A stretch of 64,000 nucleotides of DNA, from assembly GCF_011045215.1 (NCBI RefSeq), contig NZ_CP049201.1; one strand, given 5' to 3'. Numbering within the stretch: position 1 is the stretch's first letter; every line of letters begins with the position of its first letter. Made by a program: the position numbers and the translations under genes. The notes under the pieces were generated by a model, which saw only the letters and a program-made list of their open reading frames with translations, did no database searches and had not been told where the DNA came from. Of the stretch, positions 41,300 to 57,096 are shown piece after piece. This DNA comes from Escherichia coli (GTDB taxonomy: Bacteria; Pseudomonadota; Gammaproteobacteria; Enterobacterales; Enterobacteriaceae).

Positions 41300-43126
<1,827 letters not shown>

Positions 43127-43222: not shown

Positions 43223-43798
43223 TTAAAAACGATAACCAACTCCAACAGTAAATCCATTGACCGAATGTTTTCCATATATATCTGCTTTAGTTCCCTCATA
43301 CCCAACATTTACAGACATATTGCCCCACGGATTAATAATAACACCAGCTGCATAAGCAAAATCAGTGGATTTTTTTGATACAGACTCACTTAAATATCCA
43401 TCAGATTCATCAGCACCCACACTGTTTCTCCACTCATAATCTCCCTTCGCTTTAGTATGAGATATCCCCACCAAACCATAAAAACTGATATAGTCATTCA
43501 GACGATAAGCTGGGCCTGCGAGAAATGAATAATATTTAATATCAGCCTGCTGTCTGTAAAAATCGTCAGCTTCATCGCGATGACTGTCCGCCCAGTCACC
43601 TTTCATATACGAAAAACTCCCGACAACACTGACCGGAGAATCCCACTCATATCGATATTGCAGATTCACTCCTTTAATATTCTTAAAGTCCTGTACCTTA
43701 CTCTGAGCATAACCAGCCGATAGCGTATGATTATCAGCCAGTGTTGAACCACTCATAACAGATAATATCATTACTGAAATTATAACGAGTTTTTTCAT
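43223..43798 (-). CDS. Ail/Lom/PagC-family outer-membrane beta-barrel protein (191 aa)
   Basis: Track ORF; signal peptide MKKLVIISVMILSVMSGSTLA; TLSAGYAQSK...YRYEW; C-terminal ...GFTVGVGYRF. Confidence 0.85.
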   Translation of the reverse strand: MKKLVIISVMILSVMSGSTLADNHTLSAGYAQSKVQDFKNIKGVNLQYRYEWDSPVSVVGSFSYMKGDWADSHRDEADDFYRQQADIKYYSFLAGPAYRLNDYISFYGLVGISHTKAKGDYEWRNSVGADESDGYLSESVSKKSTDFAYAAGVIINPWGNMSVNVGYEGTKADIYGKHSVNGFTVGVGYRF

Positions 43799-44344
43799 TT
43801 AACCCTCCTTCATTAATAAATGATTTCTGAAAATCAAAAAGGACCACACATCACAAAACATTATTTGAAATCATCATCAAAAAACTATAAATATATCACC
43901 TGACGATTTGAACACACTGACAAAAAACCAGGCATGGTAATAAACCGAACTCCCCACAAACTTCTGTTGCCTCAGATACCACAGCCACTTTCCTCAGGTA
44001 TAAATGTTGTTCCATAACGAACCAGCCCTGTATCGTTAAATCCTGCCTCAGTGACATAATGTAACTCACCAGACTGAGTCTTCGCCTACATCATCATTTC
44101 AATACGCTTAATACATTATTCATAATATCCAGAATTTCCTATAGAATATTTACTTTGCTATATCAGTCGGTCCATAATCAGGCAAATCATTAATGCTTCC
44201 TGACTGAATATTTAAAATGCGTCACATGTTATCAAAAATTTAAAGAATACCCTATTCTTCTTCATTGGCCGGATTTAGCTCAATCTTGTCAACAAAACTA
44301 ATATAAAGCCGTTCATAAAGAGAAGGATGTAGCTTCGTTATTTA

Positions 44345-44460
44345 TCTTTTACATGTAACAGTACCAGGGGATATTCCGCACATCTCTGTGGCTATCATCC
44401 CCACCACATCGCCGGTGGCAGCACCTGCGGCACCAGCAAGAACGTTATTTCCCAATGTCC
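44345..44460 (-). pseudogene. Remnant of a cdiA pretoxin-region coding segment (no start codon)
   Basis: Reverse frame encodes ...GNNVLAGAAGAATGDVVGMIATEM..., homologous to cdiA at ~46620-46700 (QGNNALAGAAGAATGEVVGMIATQM); nucleotide similarity visible by eye. Confidence 0.45.
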
Positions 44461-44467
44461 GGATTAC

Positions 44468-44728
44468 TCAGGATCCTGACGAGGGCGTTTTTCGAGCCTT
44501 GCGTTCGTCCAATTTGGTGAAGATCCACGATCTAAATGCTGCTGCAGTTCCAACAATAACACTAGCAACTAAAATATTTTCAAGATCTGATTGCTTAATA
44601 TTCACTTCATGGCTAATAACAAACTTAACTACTATCAGAGTCAAGGAGAAGAATATTAAGCAGCAGAAAATCATGTACATAATACTTAGGAGCAGTAAAC
44701 CTACAGTAGCTTTATTTTTTCGTTCCAT
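44468..44728 (-). CDS. Small membrane protein (86 aa), candidate immunity protein for the upstream toxin-like ORF
   Basis: Track ORF; two hydrophobic helices; overlaps the stop of the 200-aa ORF. Confidence 0.5.
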   Translation of the reverse strand: MERKNKATVGLLLLSIMYMIFCCLIFFSLTLIVVKFVISHEVNIKQSDLENILVASVIVGTAAAFRSWIFTKLDERKARKTPSSGS

Positions 44729-45314
44729 TTATCTCATCTTTAACTGCATTGCTGATAAATTCACCACCTATAGCACCAATAATATCACCTGAAGGCACTG
44801 AACCTGGACCTAAAACAGGGCTAAATACCGGCGGTGCAACTACTCCAACTACAGTACCGAATACCCAACCAGCTCCCGTACCAGCTAAAGCACCTTTATC
44901 TGGTCCATCAATAAATAGAGTTCCACCTGCCGCTATCCCTGCGTTCTGCCATATATTTCGACCTGGAGCCAGCGCTCCAGTAATGCCTGCCGAGGCACTT
45001 CCCCAGTAATCCCAGCTCTTGTTTTCATTGCCTGGTTTGCTCAAGTCGTACCACTGATACGTACCATTGGCAATGGCTGAGATGACTGCGCCACTGACTA
45101 CTTTACCTGTTGATGCTGCAGGTCCTAAATACCAGGCACCTGCAATCAATACGCCATCTTTATAGCCATCAACTATCACTTTACTTATATTGGCACCTTC
45201 AGGTAACTCACCTTTGGCAAGTTTATCCAGTCCTGCCTGCTTCTGTTCCGGGGTGAGATTATTGGCATCAGCATACTGATTCCATGAGGAAACCGCCTGA
45301 CCATAACTCACCAT
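44712..45314 (-). CDS. Glycine-rich toxin-like protein (200 aa), possible pore-forming/ionophore module downstream of cdiI
   Basis: Track ORF; glycine-zipper-like hydrophobic stretch GALAGTGAGWVFGTVVGVVAPPVFSPVLGPG...IIGAIGG; same composition as the CdiA C-terminal domain. Confidence 0.5.
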   Translation of the reverse strand: MVSYGQAVSSWNQYADANNLTPEQKQAGLDKLAKGELPEGANISKVIVDGYKDGVLIAGAWYLGPAASTGKVVSGAVISAIANGTYQWYDLSKPGNENKSWDYWGSASAGITGALAPGRNIWQNAGIAAGGTLFIDGPDKGALAGTGAGWVFGTVVGVVAPPVFSPVLGPGSVPSGDIIGAIGGEFISNAVKDEINGTKK

Positions 45315-45352
45315 TCCTGATGGCAGACTGAGCGCATTATTCTCAACAACAA

Positions 45353-45571
45353 CTATTTACGATAGTATCTTCGCATTTGTAGATAGAGTTGTAACCAAAT
45401 CCCAGCACCTCCCCATAAGCCAACTACTGCGCCAATTATTCCGTATTTTACATACACCTCAGAAGGTATTGGTTCCCGAGCTATAAACCAGATACTAACC
45501 ACTATTCCAATAGAGCAAGTAGCTATAGATATAAGTAACAACTTAATAAGAAGTAGTAGATGTTTTTTCAT
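45353..45571 (-). CDS. cdiI: Putative CdiI immunity protein, small inner-membrane protein (72 aa)
   Basis: Track ORF; start overlaps the cdiA stop; two predicted transmembrane helices. Confidence 0.65.
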   Translation of the reverse strand: MKKHLLLLIKLLLISIATCSIGIVVSIWFIAREPIPSEVYVKYGIIGAVVGLWGGAGIWLQLYLQMRRYYRK

Positions 45572-48500
45572 TTTTTGTCTCCATCAACTTCTTTTTGCGT
45601 TGCGCTGCTTGCACCTTCTGATACGAATGAACCAACAAATCCACCAAATGTTCCTGGTATAGAACTCATTTGGCCGCCTTGATACATACCGTATCCGATA
45701 GACTTTTCCGAATATTGCAGTGAATATTTACTGGCGTCCATTCCCAGTTGATTTTTGATGTATTGAGCTTCTAACTTATTAGTAATTGAAGCGCCAATGT
45801 TATAGCCAAGGCCTGTACCAGCCATGCTACCCACTACTGATGCGGTACTGTCCTGGCCTTCAATCTGGCTGCTCATGTAAGCGCTACCGGCACCCAACAA
45901 CTGGTTAGCGTAATATCCTTTCCCGGCTGTACCTACACCAGTCAAGCCTGACATCATGAAACTGAGATAATCGAACTTATCACCGATATTTCCCGTACCA
46001 ATTTGTACCGCACCATTAGCCCCATAGCTCAGCCCGGCACTAACAAATTTTTCCGTCAGCGTGGCTGATGACGTTAACAACGAACCCGCTCCGGCAACCG
46101 TACCCCAGTAATTTTCCGGTTCCCCGAAGAAAGCCAGAGCCCTGTCACCCTTCGACGTATTACTGTTCAGATAATTCAGGTCGTAGCTGTTGCCTTCAGC
46201 CACGTAATCCTTCACCTCCTGATTAGTCAGTGAACCATACAGCCAGCTAGGTCGGCCCGCCGCGCTGAGCCCGCCCTCAATATTCCATTTATCTTCCCCG
46301 GACAGAGCCGTCAGAGGATCTGCGGCCACATCAATGTGTAATTTCTGTCGGTTCTCTGCGCTTAATACAGCATATTTATTCTGAATATCGCCGCAGTCTC
46401 CACCCGCTTTACGACAGGCCGTCATTTCTCTGTCAAAAGCATGCGCCTCGTCGTAGCTGAGGTAGTTATTCTCAACTGTTGTCTTACCTGACTGTGCGCC
46501 GGCTACCGCTGAAGCCCCCGAGTCGCCCACCAGACCACCGGCCAGGCCGGCAGCAACCGTTGCCAGCGTGGAGACCGTCTGTTTCTCTGTCTCACTCAGT
46601 TCACTCACCGGTTTATCGTACATCTGTGTGGCTATCATTCCCACCACCTCGCCGGTGGCTGCACCTGCAGCACCGGCAAGAGCATTATTTCCCTGTGCCA
46701 GAGACAGTGCGGCATTCACCACGGCATGGGCGGCCACATTTGCAGCCTTATTCACCTCACCTGTAACCGGGTCTGTGGTCATGGTTTTCACCACTTCAGC
46801 CAGATACGGTGCTGCACCACCTGCCAGGGCTGCACTCAGATTACCGCCGGCCAGCCCCTGTACTGCTGCCGTTGCGGCCTGTATCGCCTGCTGGTATTTG
46901 CCTCCCGTTCCAAAACCGGAGGCCGCCATACCGTTATTGTAAGCCCGCTGTGCCACATCCTGTTCCGTGAACGGTTTTCCTGCTGCCTCAAGCTCTGCAC
47001 GGGCCTGATTCAGTGCTGCCGGGTCCCGTTTCGCTTTCTCACCGGCTATCTGTCCTTCCGTTCTGGCAATATCTGCCACCTGGTTACCAATCTCACCAAT
47101 GAGTTGCGCCTGCTGCAACCGCTGCTGCTCTTTTTCCCTGTCAAAGATGGGGGACAGCGTCTGGTTTGCATGCGCAACGTCACGGTTCAGGTCTGCCACA
47201 TCCTGTTTCTGGCTCTGTGTATCCCGGATAGTGATATTCCCGGCAGACACAGCCGACTGCGTGGTACTGTCCGCATGGCCTTCATGATTTGCACCGACCA
47301 GCAGATTGTTTGCCATGTTCCCCAGGAAATTTCCGGCAACACTGCCACCGGTACTGAGCCCTGCACTCTGATGTTCCGTTTTAAAGTCAGCCCGGTTTTC
47401 AGTGTCACTGAAGCCCAGTGTGCCGGTATCCAGCCTGTTTTTATCTGCCGTTGCCGTGGACGCAATCACCGCACCGTTCAGTTGTGTATGCTGTCCGGTC
47501 GTGACATCAAACCCGCCCCTGCCGGCAAAAATCCCTGTCTGCTCCTGCACACTGTCGTGGTTACTGTGCATTTTATCCCGGCTGAGGCTCACACTCGCCG
47601 AACCGCTCATGGACCCGAAAGTGAAGCTGCCTCCGGCGCTGGCATTCTGCTGTTTACTGTCATAATGGTCACTGTCCTGCTCACTGGTCAGTGTCAGATG
47701 GCGACCGGCATCCACTTTCACGGTTTCTCCACTGGCCTGCGCCCCGGTAAGTGTGGTGTCACGCCCACTGATAATGGTCAGCTGTTTTCCCGCATCCACC
47801 GTGGTTTCTGTATGGGTGGTACCGTTGCCTTTTTCACTGCCCTTACCCTGGTTTGCGCTGGCTGACAGACTGAAACCAGGCCCTCCGGGCCCCACACCGA
47901 TACCGACACCCACGCTGCCACCACTGGATGTGTTCTTTCCTTCCAGCTTTGACGTGTTTTCTGCTGATACCAGATTCACGTCACGGTTTGCCTGCAGCAG
48001 AACGTTGTTCCCGGCCTTTATCTGACCGCCCTGTATCGTCAGGTCACCATCCACGCCCTTCACGCCGGAGCCGGTGGCCTGAATACTGAGGTTATTACCT
48101 GCGGTCAGTGTACTGCCCTTCGCCACCGTCTGCTCTGACTGCTGTTCTGATTTCGAAGACTGGCTGCCGTAAGAGAGGCTGATACCCACGGTATTGTTAT
48201 TCTCTTTCTGGTTGCCCTGTGCTTCTGCCAGTCGTCCGGCCTGCACGGCCTGAGCCCCCGAGAGCGCGGCCTTCACCCCCTGCAGGGCTTCAAGCCGGCT
48301 GTTTCCGGCAGATTTCGCCGCCTGTACGGTCTCCACCGTCGTGTTCAGGGCGCTGCCCGCTGTGCCGGACAGGGCAAGCGTCAGACCGGAGGTTTTCTGC
48401 TCCACCGTATGTGTCTGCACATGCCGGTCAGTGGCGGCGGTAATGCTGACCTCCTTACCACTGAGTGCCATGTCCCTGCCGGCAATCAGGTCAGAGCCGT

Positions 48501-51500
48501 TGACGGTCAACCGGTTACCTGCCTGAAGGGAAACATCACCGTGAACACTCCCCACCGTGCTGCCTTTCTGCGTGGTGTCTGTTGCGGTGTCCGTGACCTT
48601 CAGACTCTGGCTGCCCACGCTGAATCCCACACCTCCGGAGCTCATCAGTCCGGATTTTTTCTCCTGTTTCAGGTGTGTTTCACGGTTGCTTTCTGTCAGC
48701 GTTCCGATACTCAGGTTATTTCCGGCAGCCAGGGAGACACGGTTATCCCCGGCCACACTGCTGCCCGTGACGTTCAGATTATGTCCGGCACCGATACTGA
48801 CCGTATCCCCGTTCAGTTCACTGCCCGTCATGGTCCGGCGGTCAGTGACATCATGCGTGGTAGTGGTGGTTTTCGATAACATCCCGCTGTTGCCGGTCAC
48901 TTTATGGTATTCATCCAGCGAGCGGGTATTCTGTGCACCGGTCAGCGTCACGTCATGACCCGCCATCAGGGCCAGGCCTTTCTGAGCTGACAGCAATGCC
49001 GCCTGTGACGTCATATCCCGTCCGGCGGTCAGCGTGACATCACCGTTACCGGCAAGCGTGCTGCCCGTACTCTGTGTGACGCCCTGCGACAGACGATTAT
49101 TTTTATCCCAGATAATATTGTCCTGCGCGGATGTGGTCACTGTGGAGAATGTCATATCCCTGCCGGCACTGAGTTGCGTCAGACTGTCCTTACCCTGGTT
49201 CACCACCGTTGCTGCCGTCAGGTTTATGTCCCGTCCGGCCTGCAGCACCAGTCTGCCCTGGTCATTCTGCACATATACGCCAGCCACACTGTCGATGCTG
49301 GTACGTTCAAAATGGTTCTGTCCGGCGTCACTCTGTGCCGTACGGGTGGTGGTGGTCAGACTGATATCCCGTCCGGCCATCGCCAGCAGGCTGTCCGTGG
49401 CCTGCAGCAGCCCGCCGGTACTGTTAATATCCGTCCGGGCCGTCAGGCTGACATTTGCTCCCTGAATGGTGCCGGCCTGGTTGTGAATGTTTTCTGCACT
49501 GAGCTGCACGGCCTGCTTCCCGGCCAGTTTACCGCTGTTAAACAGGTCACCATCCAGCTTCATCACCATGTCCCTGCCGGCAATCAGCGCACCGGCACTG
49601 TTCACATCACCGGGTTTTACACGGGCATACACCTGAGGTACCTGAACCGTCTGCGTGCTGCCGTCCGGCAGTGTCACCGTGGTGTTAACCAGCCAGACAA
49701 TATCACCGGTCAGTAACGCCATCTGCTCAGCAGTCAGCGCCACACCTGGTGTCAGGTTGTATTGCTTACCAAATGCAATACCCGCATCCATTAACGCCTT
49801 AAACTGCTCTTCATCATTACTGTATCCGTCCAGGTACCGTTGCCCGGTCAGAGCGACAACCTGCTCACGAATCAGACGCTGTTCGTAAAAACCATCCCCC
49901 AGGCGTTTGAGCATGTTATCCCCGTTCTGAGAAAACGCCTTCTGCATGTAATCACTGCCCAGCCACGTCTTCTGGTTCGTAAAACGCGGGTCCGTTTCAA
50001 CCAGATATGGCACATTCACTGCCGGATTTGTTTTAAACAGGCTGCTGTCCGGCAGACGGGTATCCGGCCCGGCAACATGGATACTGCCCTGAGGTGCGCT
50101 GACTTCAAACTGCTGCCCCGGCAACAGAATGACCGGTTCACCGGCTGACACCACCGGGCGAAGCGGTATCCGGTCAGTAACGGCTACTGTCGCATCCACA
50201 TTTCCGGTCAGTCCTGTCTGTACATCCGTTCCCTGTGGCTTCAGGGGAGAAAGCGTGACCTGGCTGCCCTGAACCTGTCCGTGGCTGGTGAGCTCTCCCG
50301 GCTTCAGCGTGATGGTCTGAATGACGGGGGGCGGCTCGTAAGGGGAAATTCTTTCCCCCTGCCTGTCATTTTTATTTTTTCTTTTTATCCGGTAATAATA
50401 TGTGGATGTCCCTTTATCAGTAACATGGCGCTCTCCGCTGACACTGACGTTTTCCACATCACCGGCCTGCATATCCAGCAGACCACCTGCAACCACCTGG
50501 CTCTTGTCATTAAGCAGTTTGTCTGCCACAACCGTCATGCCGGCACCGGACAGTATTTTCCCCGGGTCGGAGTCTTTTACCCGGGTTTCCTCCACGGTAC
50601 GGGTGTATTCATATTTTGTGAACCGGTCGTTGTTATGTCCGGTATCATCCGGCGTGTTCAGGTTCAGCAGTCCATCAGAGGAGTTGTTATCAATGAACAC
50701 CCCCTCATCTTTTGCATTCCAGCGGACATCTGACCCGCGATGCTGATACTCAGTCACCTTTTCCGTGGAAACCACCACGCGCTCCGTGGTGAAATGGTCA
50801 TTGACGTTATTGATTTGTCCGGCACTCAGTACCAGATATCCGGCGGCTTCAATAGTGGCACTGTGATTATTCAGTACACCGGTTTTACCTGTGGCGGTGC
50901 CATTCGCATCCAGCGTGCCACCGATATGCATATCACCTGCACTGTAAATCAGGCTGTGCGTCCGGTTATTCAGGGTCTGTACCCCCAAGTCCACACGCTC
51001 ACGCCCGGCCAGCGTCGCCGCCACGCCATTTTCTTCCAGATTATTAAATGTGGCAGCACTGACACCAACAGCATCGCCGTAGATTCGCCCGGTACCGGAA
51101 TTCGTCAGGGTGTTCGCCTGAAGATGCGTATATTTCCCGTCAATCAGCCCACGGTTCAGCAGTGTGTCCGTCACGTTAAGCCAGGTCTGCCCGGCACTGA
51201 TTTCACCTTTCCCGGTGTTTTCAAGGCGGATGCTGTTCAGGTCAAGTCGGCTGCCTGCCAGCAGGCTGCCGGTATTAGAGACATCGCCATTAACGGAAAG
51301 CGTAAGGTTTCCGTTCGCAATAGTCTGACCACTGTTACTGAACGCTGTGTTACTTTTCAGCGTTATATCGCCCGGGGAAAGCAGTTTCCCGTCACCACCG
51401 AGCTGACCGGCATCCACAGAGACTGACTGCCCGGCCTTAACCACACCGTCACGGTTCGAAAACGCCAGCTGACGGCCACTGACAGACAATGTCGCGCCGG

Positions 51501-54500
51501 AAGAGAGCACGCCATCATTATTACTGAGCGTCCTGTCTGCCATAACCGTAAGCGCCCTGTCTGCCAGAATACTGCCCTCCTGGTTATCAAGGTCCTGCGT
51601 CGTGATGTGTATTGTCTGCGCTTCCAGCCCCTGGCCGGTATTCTGCGTGTGGCGATTGATAAACTGCAGGGCGTTCAGCGTAATGGCAGAACCACTGCGA
51701 ATCAGACCAGAGACGTTGTCCACAACGCCCCGTACACTGTCGAACAGAATGTCGCCCACAGACTGTATCTGTCCGTGGCTGTTCTGCAGGCCTCCCGTAT
51801 GCAGACGGAGTTCACCTTCACTGACCAGCCGGCCACCCTCACGGTTATCCAGCGAGGTGGTGCTCAGGTCAGCTGTCGTTTTCGCCCCCACGGTCCCGCC
51901 CCGGTTATCCATTGCTCCGGTACTGACAGTCAGTTCCTGCAGGCTGTTCAGCGTACCCCCTCTGTTATCCAGCGTCCGGCCTGCGCTATTAATGCTGATG
52001 CCTTTCCCCTGAATAAGACCGGACTGATTGTTCAGCGCCAGACTGTTCCGGCCGGGCAGACCGGTCGCCACAATCTGACCATTCGCCACCACCTGACCGG
52101 ATGTATTGTTAACCACGCCTGCAGTCAGGGACAGCGCATCTCCCGACAAAAGCACACCGGCAGTGCTGTCCAGTGTGCCGGCATTCAGCGTCATCGGGCC
52201 CTGACTGATAACCCCGCCCCGGTCACCACTGTTACGGTTGCTCAGTGTGTCAGCACGGAGATTCAGTGTGGCACCGCTCTGTATCAGACCACCTGCATCA
52301 TTGCTGATATCCGTCGAGGAAAGGGTCAGTGACTGCTGTGCCACCAGTCTGCCGCCCTGATTATCAGAGCGGGTGACATCCAGCCTGCTGTTACCGTTGC
52401 TGACCACCGTCCCCTGCTGATTTTCCAGCACATTCAGGTGCGCATTCAGGTCCCCGCCGGCGGCAAGCGTCCCTTCCTGATTACTGACATCGCCACCACT
52501 CAGCAACATATCCGTCCCGGCCTTCAGTGCGCCTTTCTGGTTCATCAGCGTACCTGACGATATCTGTAATGACGCCTGACTCCCCAGCACGCCCTGACGG
52601 TTATCGAGCGTTCCGGCGTTCAGGGTCATATCCTTCTGACCCGCCATAAATCCCTGCTGGTTATTCAGCATACCGGCCCGTACTGTCAGGGTACCGGCGC
52701 TGCTGATACCACCCCGTGTTTTCGTGTTCCGGTTACTGAGAACCCCGTCCTGTACATCCAGCGTCATGTCACTGCCGGACTGAATCAGACCATCATCAGA
52801 GACCAGTTCGCTGCCTGACACAGACAGCGTTTTCTGTGAAAGCAGTCTGCCGGACGTATTATCCAGCGCACCATCCAGCGTCACGGACAGCCCGTCAGAC
52901 ACCACCGTACCCTGGTGGTTATTCAGACTCCCTGCCGAAATATCCAGCCTGCCGGCGGACTCCATTCGTCCCTCAGTATTGCTGACAGCCTGCTGTGTTT
53001 TTATCCTGCCCGTTCCGGCAGCAGCTGAAATCAGTCCGTTGTCGTTATTCAGTGCCTGTGTATTAATCAGGATGTCACGGCTGGCAATCAGACTTCCCTG
53101 CTGGTTATCCACGGCGCCGGTTGTCCTCACCTGCAGACTACCTGACTGCGCCGCCTGCACTTTCCCCCTGCGATTATCAAGGCTCAGTGCATCCAGGCGC
53201 ACCGCGCCATTTGCCGCAAGCAGCCCTTCCCGGTTATCCACGCTTCCCGGCAGACTCAGCGAAAAATCCCCTGTTCCCGTCTGAATCAGACTGCCTTTAC
53301 GATTTGACAGGCTCTGTGCCGATATCTGCAGTGTGTCGGCATTTACCGTGCCACCATTATTGCTGAACTGCCCGGCAGTCCGGGCGGAAAGCGTACCGGC
53401 ACTCAGTTGTGCATTCTGTGTGGACAGATTTCCGCTGCCTGCATCCAGCTCAGTATGTTGTCCCTGTATCCGGCTGTTGCTTAAATCCAGCCCCTGCCCC
53501 TTCAGTTGCATGTCCCCACCGGACAGAACCTGTCCGTGTGCCGCCAGTTCGCCGGTGGTACTGACAGTCAGGTTGCCCGCTGCCGCCAGACGTCCGTCAT
53601 CTTTCACCCCGGCGGCCAGCAGACTCCGCTCACCGCCGGTCAGACGCGCTGTCTGAATCCGGGTGTTGCGGCGTGATGCCACAGAGCCTGTATGGGTGAA
53701 TGCACCATCACTCTGTATCTGCGTATCCTGCCCCGCATAAACAGAACCACTGTTATGCAGCTCCCGGGTTGTCGCCAGATGCACATCCGTTTTCGCACTG
53801 ATACTGCCACTGTTTTCAATACGTCCGTCAGCCGTCAGGGTAACCGCCCCTGCCTGCGCACCAATATGACCGGCGTTACGAACCCCCACCCCCGTTTCCG
53901 TACCGACAAGGCGAATTTTTCCGGCATACATTCCACCAAGGCTGGACACATCCAGCGCCACCTGTGGCTGCGAAGAGGCATCAGCGGCTTTTTTCTCAGT
54001 CTGCCCGTGTGCAATATCCACATTGTTACGTCCGGTGGTCACTTTCAGGTCCTGCGCCCAGATACCCGCATTAATCTTCACAGACCGGGCAATGATATCG
54101 GTATAATCCGTGCGCGAGGCATCCATCCCTTTGCCCGTAATCTGAATCTCACCACGTTCAACACTGAATCCGGTCAGACTGCCGTTTTTCATCTGAGGCT
54201 GCCCCGTGGTCAGCGTGGCCCGGTTCGCATTAATAAAACCGCACCCGTCGCAACTGATGCCGGCCGGGTTCGCAATCACCACCTGCGCCTTTTTCCCGGC
54301 AACCTCAACAAAACCGTTCAACTGGCTGGGATTGCGACTGTTCACTTCATTAAGAATGATTCGGGCCTCTCCCTTCGCCAGCCACGGGTTACCGGCAACC
54401 ATGCCGCCCAGTTGGGTCTGCACATTTTTATGCGAGTTATTCAGAATGACACCCTGATGACTGACATCAAACTGACTGTAAGTATTGTGCGATACCCCAC

Positions 54501-54804
54501 CTGCAGAAGGTGTCTGGATATTGACCTGAGGAATGCCGCTGGCTGTCTGCGTAATCGTGGGCTGCTGATGCCCCGGTGCGCCATGGTCTGCGACAATGCC
54601 TGCAGCACTGACAGAATGCACCATCCCCGAGGCCAGCCACAGGGAGAATGCAAGCGATGTGACACGGCAGATACGTTGCCTGCGTGGATATCCTGTACGG
54701 GAGGAGGGTGATGCACCGGCGCGACCGGAACGGGCAATATCTGCCACCACCATCAGCATTCCCCGGGCTTTGTTAAAAATAATGCGGTAACAATTTTTGT
54801 TCAT
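45568..54804 (-). CDS. cdiA: Contact-dependent growth inhibition exoprotein CdiA (3078 aa), two-partner-secretion TpsA family
   Basis: Track ORF; extended signal peptide MNKNCYRIIFNKARGMLMVV; TPS domain (NTYSQFDV...ILNEVNSRNPSQL); long repeat region; VENN motif 298 aa before the C-terminus. Confidence 0.92.
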   Translation of the reverse strand: MNKNCYRIIFNKARGMLMVVADIARSGRAGASPSSRTGYPRRQRICRVTSLAFSLWLASGMVHSVSAAGIVADHGAPGHQQPTITQTASGIPQVNIQTPSAGGVSHNTYSQFDVSHQGVILNNSHKNVQTQLGGMVAGNPWLAKGEARIILNEVNSRNPSQLNGFVEVAGKKAQVVIANPAGISCDGCGFINANRATLTTGQPQMKNGSLTGFSVERGEIQITGKGMDASRTDYTDIIARSVKINAGIWAQDLKVTTGRNNVDIAHGQTEKKAADASSQPQVALDVSSLGGMYAGKIRLVGTETGVGVRNAGHIGAQAGAVTLTADGRIENSGSISAKTDVHLATTRELHNSGSVYAGQDTQIQSDGAFTHTGSVASRRNTRIQTARLTGGERSLLAAGVKDDGRLAAAGNLTVSTTGELAAHGQVLSGGDMQLKGQGLDLSNSRIQGQHTELDAGSGNLSTQNAQLSAGTLSARTAGQFSNNGGTVNADTLQISAQSLSNRKGSLIQTGTGDFSLSLPGSVDNREGLLAANGAVRLDALSLDNRRGKVQAAQSGSLQVRTTGAVDNQQGSLIASRDILINTQALNNDNGLISAAAGTGRIKTQQAVSNTEGRMESAGRLDISAGSLNNHQGTVVSDGLSVTLDGALDNTSGRLLSQKTLSVSGSELVSDDGLIQSGSDMTLDVQDGVLSNRNTKTRGGISSAGTLTVRAGMLNNQQGFMAGQKDMTLNAGTLDNRQGVLGSQASLQISSGTLMNQKGALKAGTDMLLSGGDVSNQEGTLAAGGDLNAHLNVLENQQGTVVSNGNSRLDVTRSDNQGGRLVAQQSLTLSSTDISNDAGGLIQSGATLNLRADTLSNRNSGDRGGVISQGPMTLNAGTLDSTAGVLLSGDALSLTAGVVNNTSGQVVANGQIVATGLPGRNSLALNNQSGLIQGKGISINSAGRTLDNRGGTLNSLQELTVSTGAMDNRGGTVGAKTTADLSTTSLDNREGGRLVSEGELRLHTGGLQNSHGQIQSVGDILFDSVRGVVDNVSGLIRSGSAITLNALQFINRHTQNTGQGLEAQTIHITTQDLDNQEGSILADRALTVMADRTLSNNDGVLSSGATLSVSGRQLAFSNRDGVVKAGQSVSVDAGQLGGDGKLLSPGDITLKSNTAFSNSGQTIANGNLTLSVNGDVSNTGSLLAGSRLDLNSIRLENTGKGEISAGQTWLNVTDTLLNRGLIDGKYTHLQANTLTNSGTGRIYGDAVGVSAATFNNLEENGVAATLAGRERVDLGVQTLNNRTHSLIYSAGDMHIGGTLDANGTATGKTGVLNNHSATIEAAGYLVLSAGQINNVNDHFTTERVVVSTEKVTEYQHRGSDVRWNAKDEGVFIDNNSSDGLLNLNTPDDTGHNNDRFTKYEYTRTVEETRVKDSDPGKILSGAGMTVVADKLLNDKSQVVAGGLLDMQAGDVENVSVSGERHVTDKGTSTYYYRIKRKNKNDRQGERISPYEPPPVIQTITLKPGELTSHGQVQGSQVTLSPLKPQGTDVQTGLTGNVDATVAVTDRIPLRPVVSAGEPVILLPGQQFEVSAPQGSIHVAGPDTRLPDSSLFKTNPAVNVPYLVETDPRFTNQKTWLGSDYMQKAFSQNGDNMLKRLGDGFYEQRLIREQVVALTGQRYLDGYSNDEEQFKALMDAGIAFGKQYNLTPGVALTAEQMALLTGDIVWLVNTTVTLPDGSTQTVQVPQVYARVKPGDVNSAGALIAGRDMVMKLDGDLFNSGKLAGKQAVQLSAENIHNQAGTIQGANVSLTARTDINSTGGLLQATDSLLAMAGRDISLTTTTRTAQSDAGQNHFERTSIDSVAGVYVQNDQGRLVLQAGRDINLTAATVVNQGKDSLTQLSAGRDMTFSTVTTSAQDNIIWDKNNRLSQGVTQSTGSTLAGNGDVTLTAGRDMTSQAALLSAQKGLALMAGHDVTLTGAQNTRSLDEYHKVTGNSGMLSKTTTTTHDVTDRRTMTGSELNGDTVSIGAGHNLNVTGSSVAGDNRVSLAAGNNLSIGTLTESNRETHLKQEKKSGLMSSGGVGFSVGSQSLKVTDTATDTTQKGSTVGSVHGDVSLQAGNRLTVNGSDLIAGRDMALSGKEVSITAATDRHVQTHTVEQKTSGLTLALSGTAGSALNTTVETVQAAKSAGNSRLEALQGVKAALSGAQAVQAGRLAEAQGNQKENNNTVGISLSYGSQSSKSEQQSEQTVAKGSTLTAGNNLSIQATGSGVKGVDGDLTIQGGQIKAGNNVLLQANRDVNLVSAENTSKLEGKNTSSGGSVGVGIGVGPGGPGFSLSASANQGKGSEKGNGTTHTETTVDAGKQLTIISGRDTTLTGAQASGETVKVDAGRHLTLTSEQDSDHYDSKQQNASAGGSFTFGSMSGSASVSLSRDKMHSNHDSVQEQTGIFAGRGGFDVTTGQHTQLNGAVIASTATADKNRLDTGTLGFSDTENRADFKTEHQSAGLSTGGSVAGNFLGNMANNLLVGANHEGHADSTTQSAVSAGNITIRDTQSQKQDVADLNRDVAHANQTLSPIFDREKEQQRLQQAQLIGEIGNQVADIARTEGQIAGEKAKRDPAALNQARAELEAAGKPFTEQDVAQRAYNNGMAASGFGTGGKYQQAIQAATAAVQGLAGGNLSAALAGGAAPYLAEVVKTMTTDPVTGEVNKAANVAAHAVVNAALSLAQGNNALAGAAGAATGEVVGMIATQMYDKPVSELSETEKQTVSTLATVAAGLAGGLVGDSGASAVAGAQSGKTTVENNYLSYDEAHAFDREMTACRKAGGDCGDIQNKYAVLSAENRQKLHIDVAADPLTALSGEDKWNIEGGLSAAGRPSWLYGSLTNQEVKDYVAEGNSYDLNYLNSNTSKGDRALAFFGEPENYWGTVAGAGSLLTSSATLTEKFVSAGLSYGANGAVQIGTGNIGDKFDYLSFMMSGLTGVGTAGKGYYANQLLGAGSAYMSSQIEGQDSTASVVGSMAGTGLGYNIGASITNKLEAQYIKNQLGMDASKYSLQYSEKSIGYGMYQGGQMSSIPGTFGGFVGSFVSEGASSATQKEVDGDKK
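45571..46476 (-). other. CdiA-CT toxin domain: VENN motif (46465-46476) plus 298-aa glycine-rich C-terminal domain
   Basis: ...GKTTVENNYLSYDEAHAFDREMTACRKAGGDCG... followed by Gly/Ala/Ser-rich hydrophobic stretches (GTVAGAGSLL, GLTGVGTAGKG, VVGSMAGTGLGYNIGA). Confidence 0.75.
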
Positions 54805-54819
54805 TCTGATAAACCTGAC

Positions 54820-55347
54820 TTATCTCTCCGGCACATCCACAGCAAGCGGGTGCTGCACACGCCACTGGCGCGCCTCTTCACGACTGACCTGTGCACCCCG
54901 GAAATTCATCACCCGCAACCCGGTCTGCTGCCCACGGTGGTACAGCGAACGCCAGCACAGACGGGGAAAAATATCCTGCCGGACAAGACGACTCATATCC
55001 GGGGTATGTCCAAAAGGGGCAATCCAGTCACAGACCCACATCCGGTCGCCGCTGTTCCAGTCCGACTGAGGCATGAGAATTGCCGGCTGCGTAAGATAAC
55101 GCGCCTCTGCCTCCGGGCTGAGCCAGGCCTGGCTCATGAAGAAAACCGGTCGCCCCTGCTCTGTTGCCACCACATACTGTCGGTGCTTAATCACCGGCAG
55201 CAGCAGGTCCGGCAGGGTATGCAGTGGCGCATCACGATGCAGGGGGGAGTGCATCCACAACCAGACGGCCGCCCCCAGAACTTCCGCCTCATTGACCGGC
55301 TCACCGGAATACAGGGGACTCAGAACGTCATATTTCCCGTTACGCAT
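54820..55347 (-). CDS. cdiC: CdiC, HlyC/CyaC-family toxin-activating lysine acyltransferase (175 aa)
   Basis: Track ORF; VWLWMHSPLHRDAPL and SGDRMWVCDWIAPFG align with the HlyC motifs SWLWASSPLHRNWPV and SGDRKWFIDWIAPFG (HlyC recalled from memory); lies between cdiB and cdiA. Confidence 0.85.
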   Translation of the reverse strand: MRNGKYDVLSPLYSGEPVNEAEVLGAAVWLWMHSPLHRDAPLHTLPDLLLPVIKHRQYVVATEQGRPVFFMSQAWLSPEAEARYLTQPAILMPQSDWNSGDRMWVCDWIAPFGHTPDMSRLVRQDIFPRLCWRSLYHRGQQTGLRVMNFRGAQVSREEARQWRVQHPLAVDVPER

Positions 55348-55356
55348 GAAATTTTC

Positions 55357-57096
55357 TCAGAAATCCCGGAACAGATTAAAACCGGCTGTCACATCACTCG
55401 TCATAAAACCCGCCGGTTTTGAAAACGGACGACCGATGAAAACGTCATAATCCGTACTGAACAGTTGCCCCCTCAGCCCCACAACACCACCGGCCAGATG
55501 ACGTCCCACCAGGTATTCACTGCCGGCTCCCCCCACCTCGCCGTAATCCATTCCCAGATATAACGCCTGCTCCGGCAGTGGCGTACGCCAGGCCAGGTCG
55601 TTGCGGATATACCAGCCGTTACTGGCATTCAGCGTTCGCTCCCCGTCAAAACCACGAACCGTCCAGCGGTTACCGATGGCAAACTGTTCCTGTGGGGTCA
55701 GCGGGGTATTGCTCAGCTGGCGCTGATACCGGAAGGAATAACTGAAGGGCTGCCCTGCAAGGGTAAAGGGCAGATTAAAGGATGCATTCAACTGCAGGAT
55801 CTTACTGAGCGCCGTTGCCTCACCGAACGTTTCTTCCGGCGCCGGCTGTGCACCAAACCAGCGGGTTCCCCGTTGCCAGCTGACACCAGCATCCAGTGTG
55901 GCCTGAGAAATATAATGACGGTGCTGCAGCCCAAGTCGCCAGGCCGCTGTCTGCCGGCGCTGCACCTGGATTTCCGTATCATTAATGTAGTTACGCGACC
56001 TGCGGGCCTGAACATCGTAGGTCAGCACCGTTTTCTGCGTCCCGTTACGGTGCAGTACCCGGCTCAGCTGCATACCCAGATTCTGACTCTCGCCACTGTA
56101 CTGGTAATCCTCAACCGCACCAGCTACCGTCTGATGGTAATCGTAATCACTGGCGGTGACGGAAAACTGCCAGTAGCCGAAAGGCACAGAGTAATGGGCC
56201 GTGTAGTTTTTACTGCCCTTACCCCCGTAATGTGGAAAATTACGGGTGGCAGAAACATACAGCAGGTCACTCAGGGAAAAAGGATTATCCAGAGAAAATG
56301 TTATACCACCGAGATAACGCCCTGTGCTGCGGGTACCTGAATCATCAAGCGAAAACCCCAGTCGCCAGTATTTGTCCTGTTTGCGGGTAATAAGAATGTC
56401 ACTTTCCCCTGGCTGCTCACCGGGTACAATTTCCATATCAGCCTGCACACCCGGCAGTCGTTGCATATTCTCCAGCCCCTGCTCAATGTCCCGTAAATCC
56501 AGCAGAGAACCTTCGTGTGCCGGGAATGAGGAATACAACTGAATATAGTCATCACTGTCCGGTGTCAGACGCACATGTCGCACAACACCGGGAATAACAA
56601 CCAGCCGGAGGATACCGCTTTTTAAATCCTGCGAAGGTGCCAGAACACGGGTGGTGACATAACCATGATCGACCAGACGGTTCTGCAATGTACTCATCAG
56701 CAGATTAATTCCTTTCGCCCCCAGGCAATGCCCGACCGCCCCGTTGGCGATTTTTTGTAAAGGCAGCCAGTGTGGTAACGCATCAGCCCCCTCCAGTTCC
56801 GTCTGTTTAATCTGAAAACAGGGCGTTTCAACAGGAAAATTAATCTTACGGGCAAAAGAGCCAGGTGCAGAAAGGCGAACATCAGGGGCTGAAGGCGTCA
56901 GTTGTTGCTCAAGGGCTTCCTGACGCTGCTGCTGAATGATAAATGCATTATCTCCGCTACGCCGGACATCCGCGGCCTGAAGAGATAAAGGCGATAATAA
57001 AACAGACATCAGTGTCAGTGACAGCAAGGACGGACAGCGCCGGAATACGCTTTGTTCCTCAGCCCTCTCGTTCCTGCAACATAATTTTCCAGTCAA
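55357..57096 (-). CDS. cdiB: CdiB, TpsB/Omp85-family outer-membrane transporter (579 aa)
   Basis: Track ORF; signal peptide at the internal start [15 protein letters not shown] (~57009); C-terminal beta-barrel ending ...AGFNLFRDF. Confidence 0.88.

Follow-up and report, generated by a model that had tools for sequence, protein, structure and literature searches.

A CdiA C-terminal toxin and its 72-residue immunity partner in an Escherichia coli cdi locus very probably form a group 4 alpha-helical ionophore module of the VREC0495 type

The DNA analysed here, a stretch of 64,000 nucleotides from Escherichia coli contig NZ_CP049201.1 (assembly GCF_011045215.1) that we refer to as the window, carries a contact-dependent growth inhibition (CDI) locus whose effector protein, CdiA, ends in a variable C-terminal region (CT) and is followed directly by a gene for a 72-residue immunity protein, cdiI. 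We conclude with high confidence, from sequence comparison, that this CT/CdiI pair is a CDI module of the alpha-helical ionophore family (type 10), belonging to group 4 and to the E. coli VREC0495 type. The family, built around CdiA-CT EC93, was described by Halvorsen et al. in 2024 (PLoS Genet, PMC11630599), and its members combine a variable entry domain with a five-helix ionophore domain and share a single common glycine zipper (G168-x3-G172-x3-G176 in EC93), while the family's CdiI proteins are two-helix hairpins of 72-100 residues (PMC11630599). As the family has already been described and the pair in the window is very probably of a tested type, the module is thus not new. A sequence-only reading of the same DNA had proposed that the CT targets membranes, resembling an ionophore or pore-former, and has a small membrane protein as its immunity partner. 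Homology to EC93 and to a validated group 3 ionophore, the layout of CdiI and the match to a VREC0495 primer all support this proposal, and the accompanying remark that the CT could not be placed has been overtaken, as the CT now finds its place in the family published in 2024.

The variable CT begins at the VENN motif (46465..46476, minus strand; CdiA residues 2777-2780) of the PT-VENN domain (CdiA residues 2733-2783, Pfam, E 2.6e-20), and translation of the sequence after VENN (45571..46464, minus strand) gives exactly the 298 residues that had been noted. The peptides quoted from it were all located as well: GTVAGAGSLL at CT 121-130, GLTGVGTAGKGYYANQLLGAGSAY at CT 173-196 and VVGSMAGTGLGYNIGA at CT 210-225. 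By contrast, the description of the CT as one glycine-rich domain of 298 residues had to be revised, since the CT is bipartite and the toxin is confined to residues ~116-298. The glycine-rich label holds for CT 116-298 (45571..46119, minus strand), which contains 18.0% Gly and 13% Ser, no Arg and no His, and few acidic residues, but not for CT 1-115 (46120..46464, minus strand), which is polar and charged with 27% DEKRH and 9.6% Gly. Because these first ~115 residues are polar, charged and poor in glycine, we treat the CT as two domains rather than one. The glycine content of CT 116-298 exceeds that of every 183-residue window in the remaining CdiA (mean 12.6%, maximum 17.5%), which is itself already glycine-rich. 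The number of GxxxG motifs was not above that of composition-matched shuffles (8 versus 5.7 ± 2.0, p about 0.17), and the glycine zipper is therefore meaningful because it is conserved (see below), not because of the GxxxG count.

The division into two domains is also apparent from the distribution of relatives. A profile (A1) was built from 21 relatives, drawn from 44 clusters that come from E. coli, Salmonella, Citrobacter, Siccibacter, Kluyvera, Lonsdalea and Brenneria and are mostly short orphan "VENN" fragments. When 1.84 billion representatives were searched exhaustively with A1 in HMMER (threshold E <= 1e-3), the 130 matches fell into three clean classes, namely proteins matching the entry part only (profile 1-~125), the toxin part only (~121-298) or both. 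In the entry-only proteins the accompanying domain is an EC869-like DNase, a BURPS668_1122 deaminase or Ntox50, and among ten proteins with the toxin domain that were scanned, PT-VENN was present in six, filamentous haemagglutinin (FHA) repeats were the only domain in one and no Pfam domain was found in the other three. Judged by these profile matches, the entry and ionophore domains behave as separate, recombining modules.

To compare the toxin domain with the founding member of the family, we rebuilt the EC93 CT (224 residues) and its CdiI (79 residues) from the residue tables in S2 Appendix of PMC11630599. BLASTP aligned EC93 131-183 with CT 179-231 (34% identity over 53 residues) with the two zippers in register, and hhalign matched A1 to the EC93 CT with an E-value of 7.9e-5 (probability 61%). 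The match of A1 to a second toxin in the window, the orphan CT of 88-H13-A type described below, was stronger and covered the whole domain (E 2.7e-6, probability 88.5%, 130 columns), and the exhaustive A1 search retrieved proteins that are 61% and 48% identical to the EC93 CT. On the strength of these alignments, CT 116-298 and the ionophore domain of EC93 are homologues. The zipper itself, G212-SMA-G216-TGL-G220-YNI-G224 in predicted helix a4 (45793..45831, minus strand), aligns with EC93 G164/G168/G172/G176, and in an alignment of 52 diverse sequences of the ionophore domain (A2) the positions G216-x3-G220-x3-G224 are occupied by Gly in 48, 51 and 45 of the 52 relatives, respectively.

Structure prediction points in the same direction. 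AlphaFold2, run on CT 112-298 with A2, returned a model with a mean predicted local distance difference test score (pLDDT) of 68.4, a predicted template modelling score (pTM) of 0.51 and a core pLDDT of 73-80, in which five long helices are predicted: a1 (136-156), a2 (166-179), a3 (184-202), a4 (206-240) and a5 (269-296). The positions of these helices coincide with those transferred independently, via the alignment, from the published annotations of EC93 and 88-H13-A; in addition, the model shows only one short hairpin of low confidence and, also with low confidence, a further helical stretch at CT 116-130. Together with hhalign and the profile search, the model defines CT 116-298 as a glycine-rich alpha-helical ionophore domain. 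A Foldseek search with the model found no structural neighbours in the PDB, and a PDB profile search with the ionophore alignment gave glycine-rich matches only, to prion protein and NDUFA11, which were insignificant (E >= 0.025).

These predicted helices bear directly on the idea that the toxin depolarises membranes by means of another fold, the tapered beta-barrel of Ntox25 and Tse4, which is likewise glycine-rich. The high Gly, Ser and Tyr content and the low hydropathy of the toxin domain would suit a barrel of this kind, and related CdiA scaffolds elsewhere (E. coli C5 and GXU-23-25-310) do carry Ntox25 CTs; however, PF15530 (Ntox25) has no match at E <= 1 on either the CT or the whole CdiA, and both the helical homology to EC93 and 88-H13-A and the five long helices of the AlphaFold2 model oppose such a fold, so that we consider a beta-barrel very improbable. 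Likewise, we find it barely credible that the CT is an enzymatic toxin (a nuclease, deaminase or similar) of undescribed fold and that the 72-residue open reading frame (ORF) behind it is incidental. It is true that the toxin domain has neither a curated family nor a solved structure: Pfam and NCBIfam scans revealed no toxin family covering the CT, CdiI or the orphan, and the sole match within the CT was a sub-threshold hit to PF21483 that was later explained as part of the entry domain. Yet there is no catalytic-domain match, the domain lacks His and Arg and has few acidic residues, its homologue EC93 is a proven ionophore, and a two-transmembrane ORF is kept directly downstream across genera and co-varies with the C-terminal tail of the toxin. 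The sequence-only reading had already seen no nuclease-like motifs in the CT, and in Pfam, NCBIfam and the PDB profile search no enzymatic family aligned. The Pfam glycine-zipper families PF13441, PF13488 and PF05433 gave no match to the CT either, and each of them matches just 2-3 of the 52 relatives (best E 2.8e-5).

The features of the immunity protein agree with an alpha-helical ionophore as its cognate toxin. The cdiI gene (45353..45571, minus strand) starts inside the stop codon of cdiA, with a 4-nt overlap (ATGA) and a GGAG upstream, and encodes a predicted two-helix inner-membrane protein of 72 residues. The earlier suggestion of a two-helix membrane immunity candidate was borne out by two hydrophobic segments, at residues ~5-30 and ~43-62 (Kyte-Doolittle values up to 2.5 and 1.5, respectively), by basic residues at both termini (MKK... 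and ...RRYYRK), as for a hairpin with both ends in the cytoplasm (N-in/C-in), and by a layout that it shares with the CdiI proteins of EC93, NCTC11116 and 88-H13-A type. This layout, in which helix 2 carries an invariant Gly and Trp, is common to CdiI proteins of groups 1, 3 and 4. A small two-transmembrane ORF also follows the CT directly in Citrobacter youngae and in Brenneria, where it is unannotated, and the 72-residue cdiI itself is unannotated in E. coli strains CFS3292, A1.S1.65, C5 and FRIK944. Within E. coli, CdiI varies by single residues (F28/L28 and I45/R45).

The assignment to the VREC0495 type was guided by the published cloning primers. The gene-specific 22 nt of primer CH6268, "VREC0495-cdiI-Kpn-for" (S4 Table of PMC11630599), ATGAAAAAACATCTACTACTTC, are identical at 22/22 positions to 45550..45571 (minus strand), which is the start of the 72-residue cdiI ORF. 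The same 22 nt also match cdiI of E. coli C5, O157:H7 FRIK944, CFS3292 and A1.S1.65. As a cross-check of the primer method, the downstream orphan was called 88-H13-A by primer and this call was then confirmed at 125/126 residues, and primer identity is a reliable guide here because of this independent confirmation. The protein lengths fit as well, the CdiA of VREC0495 having 3337 residues versus 3338 for the CFS3292 and M11-plasmid CdiA proteins that carry this CT. For those group 4 toxins that were tested, the cognate immunity genes conferred protection, and a DiBAC4(3) assay showed that every ionophore group has representatives that depolarise target cells (PMC11630599). We infer from the sequence match that the published results for VREC0495 and group 4 apply to the allele in the window. 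As a side remark, the strain is called "VREC0485" in the plasmid table of PMC11630599 (S3) and "VREC0495" in the text, S1 Table and primer table, which presumably reflects a typographical slip.

Membership in group 4, which is defined by a YciB-type entry domain (PMC11630599), is mirrored in CT 1-115. A PDB search with profile A1 matched a single chain, 4G6U_A (EC869 CdiA-CT, E 1.9e-18), and the alignment extends from CT 6-160 to 4G6U_A 5-165 and places CRKaGedC opposite CRKSGGNC, such that C17 and C24, which are at least 90% conserved in A1, align with both cysteines of the latter. As YciB is the inner-membrane receptor of the orphan-11 DNase toxin CdiA-CT o11 EC869 (PMC7690452), we conclude from this profile match that CT 1-115 is a YciB-type entry domain, common to DNase, deaminase and Ntox50 toxins. 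The CT might instead be an alpha-helical CDI ionophore whose entry domain relies not on YciB but on another inner-membrane receptor: the entry domain and 4G6U_A are distant relatives only, the PF21483 score of this CT is only 18 bits versus 61-93 bits for nuclease-linked entry domains, and receptor preference may differ among divergent entry domains of one group (PMC11630599). We consider this improbable, however, given that a yciB requirement was reported for CT-VREC0495 itself as well as for CT-Eict, with Δ-yciB targets being resistant to CT-VREC0495 to an extent comparable to targets expressing cognate immunity genes (PMC11630599), that cdiI in the window begins with the VREC0495 primer sequence, and that E. 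coli variants of the CT show 98% conservation in the entry domain.

Several observations weigh against the assignment to a group 4 ionophore of VREC0495 type. The toxin domain is only mildly hydrophobic, its highest 19-residue Kyte-Doolittle mean being 0.89, well below that of a classical transmembrane segment, and the earlier description of a hydrophobic CT therefore holds only weakly. The hhalign probability to EC93 alone is only 61%, the AlphaFold2 scores for the ionophore domain are only moderate (pLDDT 68, pTM 0.51), and a prediction for the whole 298-residue CT with 21 close relatives was unusable (pLDDT 41). Moreover, an insert of ~35 residues between a4 and a5 (CT ~233-267) is missing from EC93 and 88-H13-A. 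Lastly, the VREC0495 identity, which we hold to be very probable, is based on 22 nt together with the protein lengths and the family context, and none of the accessions that we looked up for CdiA proteins bearing this CT (WP_250848372, WP_244588161, WP_231336714, WP_228395592, WP_167745263, WP_228395574 and WP_338756110) occurs in S1 Appendix of PMC11630599; as BLAST lists of this sort give one accession per identical-protein group, we do not take this to mean that the proteins are absent from it.

If the module acts as the published ionophores do, CdiB would export CdiA to the cell surface, and upon contact with a target cell the CT would be delivered into the target periplasm and cleaved off after VENN (PMC11630599). 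The helical, disulfide-containing CT 1-115 would then engage YciB in the inner membrane, which would let CT ~136-296 assemble in the cytoplasmic membrane as five glycine-rich helices, with the GxxxGxxxG motif in a4. The assembled ionophore would collapse the membrane potential and growth would stop, while the producer would be protected by the 72-residue CdiI hairpin, placed N-in/C-in in its own inner membrane. In published models, CdiI binds the ionophore helices a1, a4 and a5 (PMC11630599). There is perhaps a slim chance that the a4-a5 insert (CT ~233-267) and the variable tail act as an extra determinant of assembly, conduction or CdiI recognition, and not as a passive linker; if so, toxins of VREC0495 type would be a mechanistically distinct sub-class.

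Directly after cdiI, the window contains an orphan toxin-immunity module (44468..45350, minus strand). Its cdiA-CT (44712..45350, minus strand) opens with a VVENN remnant (VENN at 45336..45347), lacks a start codon upstream of VENN and continues as a 207-residue CT of group 3, AcrB-type ionophores, of 88-H13-A type. Residues 82-207 are identical at 125/126 positions to the 88-H13-A CT rebuilt from S2 Appendix, and primer U124-Nco-for matches 45328..45347. The cognate orphan cdiI (44468..44728, minus strand), which encodes 86 residues with two hydrophobic helices, is matched by primer 88-H13-A-cdiI-Kpn-for at 44709..44728, and its product equals CdiI 88-H13-A in length (both 86 residues) and ends in PSSGS versus PSSGP. 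The locus thus stacks two ionophores that are predicted to use different receptors, since the AcrB-type orphan follows the putatively YciB-dependent main toxin. An equivalent orphan CT in E. coli C5 is annotated as "adhesin". Further downstream, a pretoxin (pre-VENN) remnant at 44342..44455 (minus strand), a 37-residue ORF beginning MGNNVLAGAAGAATGDVVGMIATEM..., resembles CdiA residues ~2690-2715 (QGNNALAGAAGAATGEVVGMIATQM) and probably represents what is left of another, truncated orphan module. A scan for promoters and terminators around cdiI and the orphan module gave nothing above background.

Upstream of cdiI the locus is intact, with the gene order cdiB-cdiC-cdiA-cdiI, all on the minus strand. 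The cdiB gene (55357..57096, ORF bounds as listed) encodes the outer-membrane transporter of this two-partner-secretion system, matching ShlB (E 2.8e-109), POTRA_2 and POTRA_3 in Pfam, and cdiC (54820..55347), located between cdiB and cdiA, encodes an acyltransferase of the HlyC/RTX-type lysyl class (PF02794 HlyC, E 3.7e-32, Pfam). The CDI effector gene cdiA (45568..54804, stop codon 45568..45570) is a single ORF for 3078 residues, and the protein is an exact match of WP_250848372.1 from E. coli, with the Pfam domains ESPR, TPS, Fil_haemagg, Fil_haemagg_2 and PT-VENN. The cdiBCAI order is that of class IV CDI systems, which bind the core of lipopolysaccharide (LPS; PMC8510554), and from the cdiC gene order alone CdiA is probably lipidated and probably recognises the LPS core. 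The closest CdiA scaffold among complete genomes is that of ETEC1716 (99.1% over 1.2 kb). On the other side of the locus, the downstream neighbours on the minus strand encode an Ail/Lom outer-membrane protein (43223..43798), a NERD-UvrD-type helicase (41300..43126) and a VasL/ImpA-N protein of the type VI secretion system (T6SS; 39657..40874), and because of the latter gene the CDI locus adjoins a T6SS region, as in E. coli C5.

A survey of 5426 complete E. coli genomes revealed some match in 116 of them, and the whole CT with cdiI in 40-46. Most genomic copies are orphan modules in bovine and Shiga toxin-producing strains, situated downstream of a cdiA with another toxin (tRNase or Ntox25). 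In O157:H7 FRIK944, for example, the CT is the first orphan after a tRNase cdiA and its cdiI, and in E. coli C5 it is an orphan downstream of an Ntox25 cdiA, with ~1.5 kb of pre-VENN sequence kept. Fusions to full-length CdiA are found in few records, namely CFS3292, QA-1986 630, A1.S1.65, MEI4BO-21 and the plasmids of mouse strains M6, M9, M11, M15 and M19, and the CdiA-CT junction of the window occurs in no complete RefSeq genome of E. coli. The in-frame fusion to full-length CdiA in the window gives the impression that recombination has promoted an orphan module, and the cdiC-containing CdiA scaffold may have acquired its CT through such a promotion. Proteins from Providencia, Proteus, Pseudomonas and Photorhabdus are more remote relatives.

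Among E. coli copies, CT sequences differ by 0-4%. The M11 plasmid bears an intact variant, in which the tail has diverged and CdiI has 71 residues. Compared with this variant, the entry domain of the CT is 98% identical, CT 116-233 97%, CT 234-298 58% and CdiI 35%, a sequence pattern that fits the co-diversification of toxin and immunity protein described in PMC11630599. On M15 plasmid A (NZ_CP010214.1, from 134604), a transposase fragment interrupts cdiA at CT residue ~264, and cdiI is lost. We considered whether this cdiA might be the group 6 "M15" toxin and rejected the idea, as the interrupted gene lacks cdiI and the M15 primers mismatch this CT.

With family, receptor and immunity logic all published in 2024, the discovery value of the module is small. 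It does expose an annotation gap, however: the ionophore domain and its CdiI have no Pfam or NCBIfam model and RefSeq often leaves the 72-residue gene unannotated, and as long as models and cdiI annotation are missing, genome scans will keep flagging such modules as unknown. In addition, the stacking of ionophore modules in E. coli supplies the raw material for switching toxins and for distinguishing self from non-self among strains.

Among known toxins, depolarisation of the cytoplasmic membrane is also brought about by Ntox25 (PF15530), pore-forming colicins, microcin V and the T6SS effectors Tse4 and Ssp6, some of which have membrane-embedded immunity. The folds of Ntox25 (a beta-barrel) and of the colicins (a ten-helix domain) are nevertheless unrelated to the one predicted here and show no sequence match to the CT, and colicins need no protein receptor for insertion and act as cation channels (PMC11630599). 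The DNase toxin CdiA-CT o11 EC869/TA271 (4G6U; PF21111 with PF21483) depends on YciB and has an entry domain homologous to that of the CT in the window, but its C-terminal domain is a restriction-endonuclease-like cytoplasmic DNase, in contrast to the predicted membrane ionophore here. The immunity protein in the EC869 CdiA-CT/CdiI complex (4G6U) is soluble.

Closer to the toxin domain is EC93, the founding CDI ionophore (group 1): its G168/G172/G176 are in register with G216/G220/G224, helices a1-a5 map one to one, and its CdiI, likewise small, is a two-helix protein whose helix 2 carries a G..G.W motif, as in the window. EC93 differs in its receptor (AcrB) and entry domain, reaches an identity of ~30-34% in the best stretch and lacks both the ~35-residue a4-a5 insert and the helical stretch that is predicted, with low confidence, at CT 116-130; for VREC0495 versus EC93, PSI-BLAST gave 28.45% identity over 51% (PMC11630599). 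The other group 4 ionophores (E. coli B088, FSIS11923842 and avian5, and Edwardsiella ictaluri 93-146) have the same architecture of a YciB entry domain and an ionophore domain. The B088 CT is apparently ~290-300 residues long, as judged from a 99.66% identity that equals one mismatch, and because the VREC0495 type and B088 are only ~31% identical over 80% of the CT (PMC11630599), the two represent distinct toxin-immunity specificities. The system in the window is most like that of VREC0495 (SQY39224.1/SQY39222.1), with which it shares the 5' 22 nt of cdiI and a YciB-type entry domain with its Cys pair. Its 72-residue CdiI lies at the lower bound of the 72-100-residue range of the family (PMC11630599), and the CT is carried here on a shorter CdiA (3078 versus 3337 residues in VREC0495), within a locus that contains cdiC.

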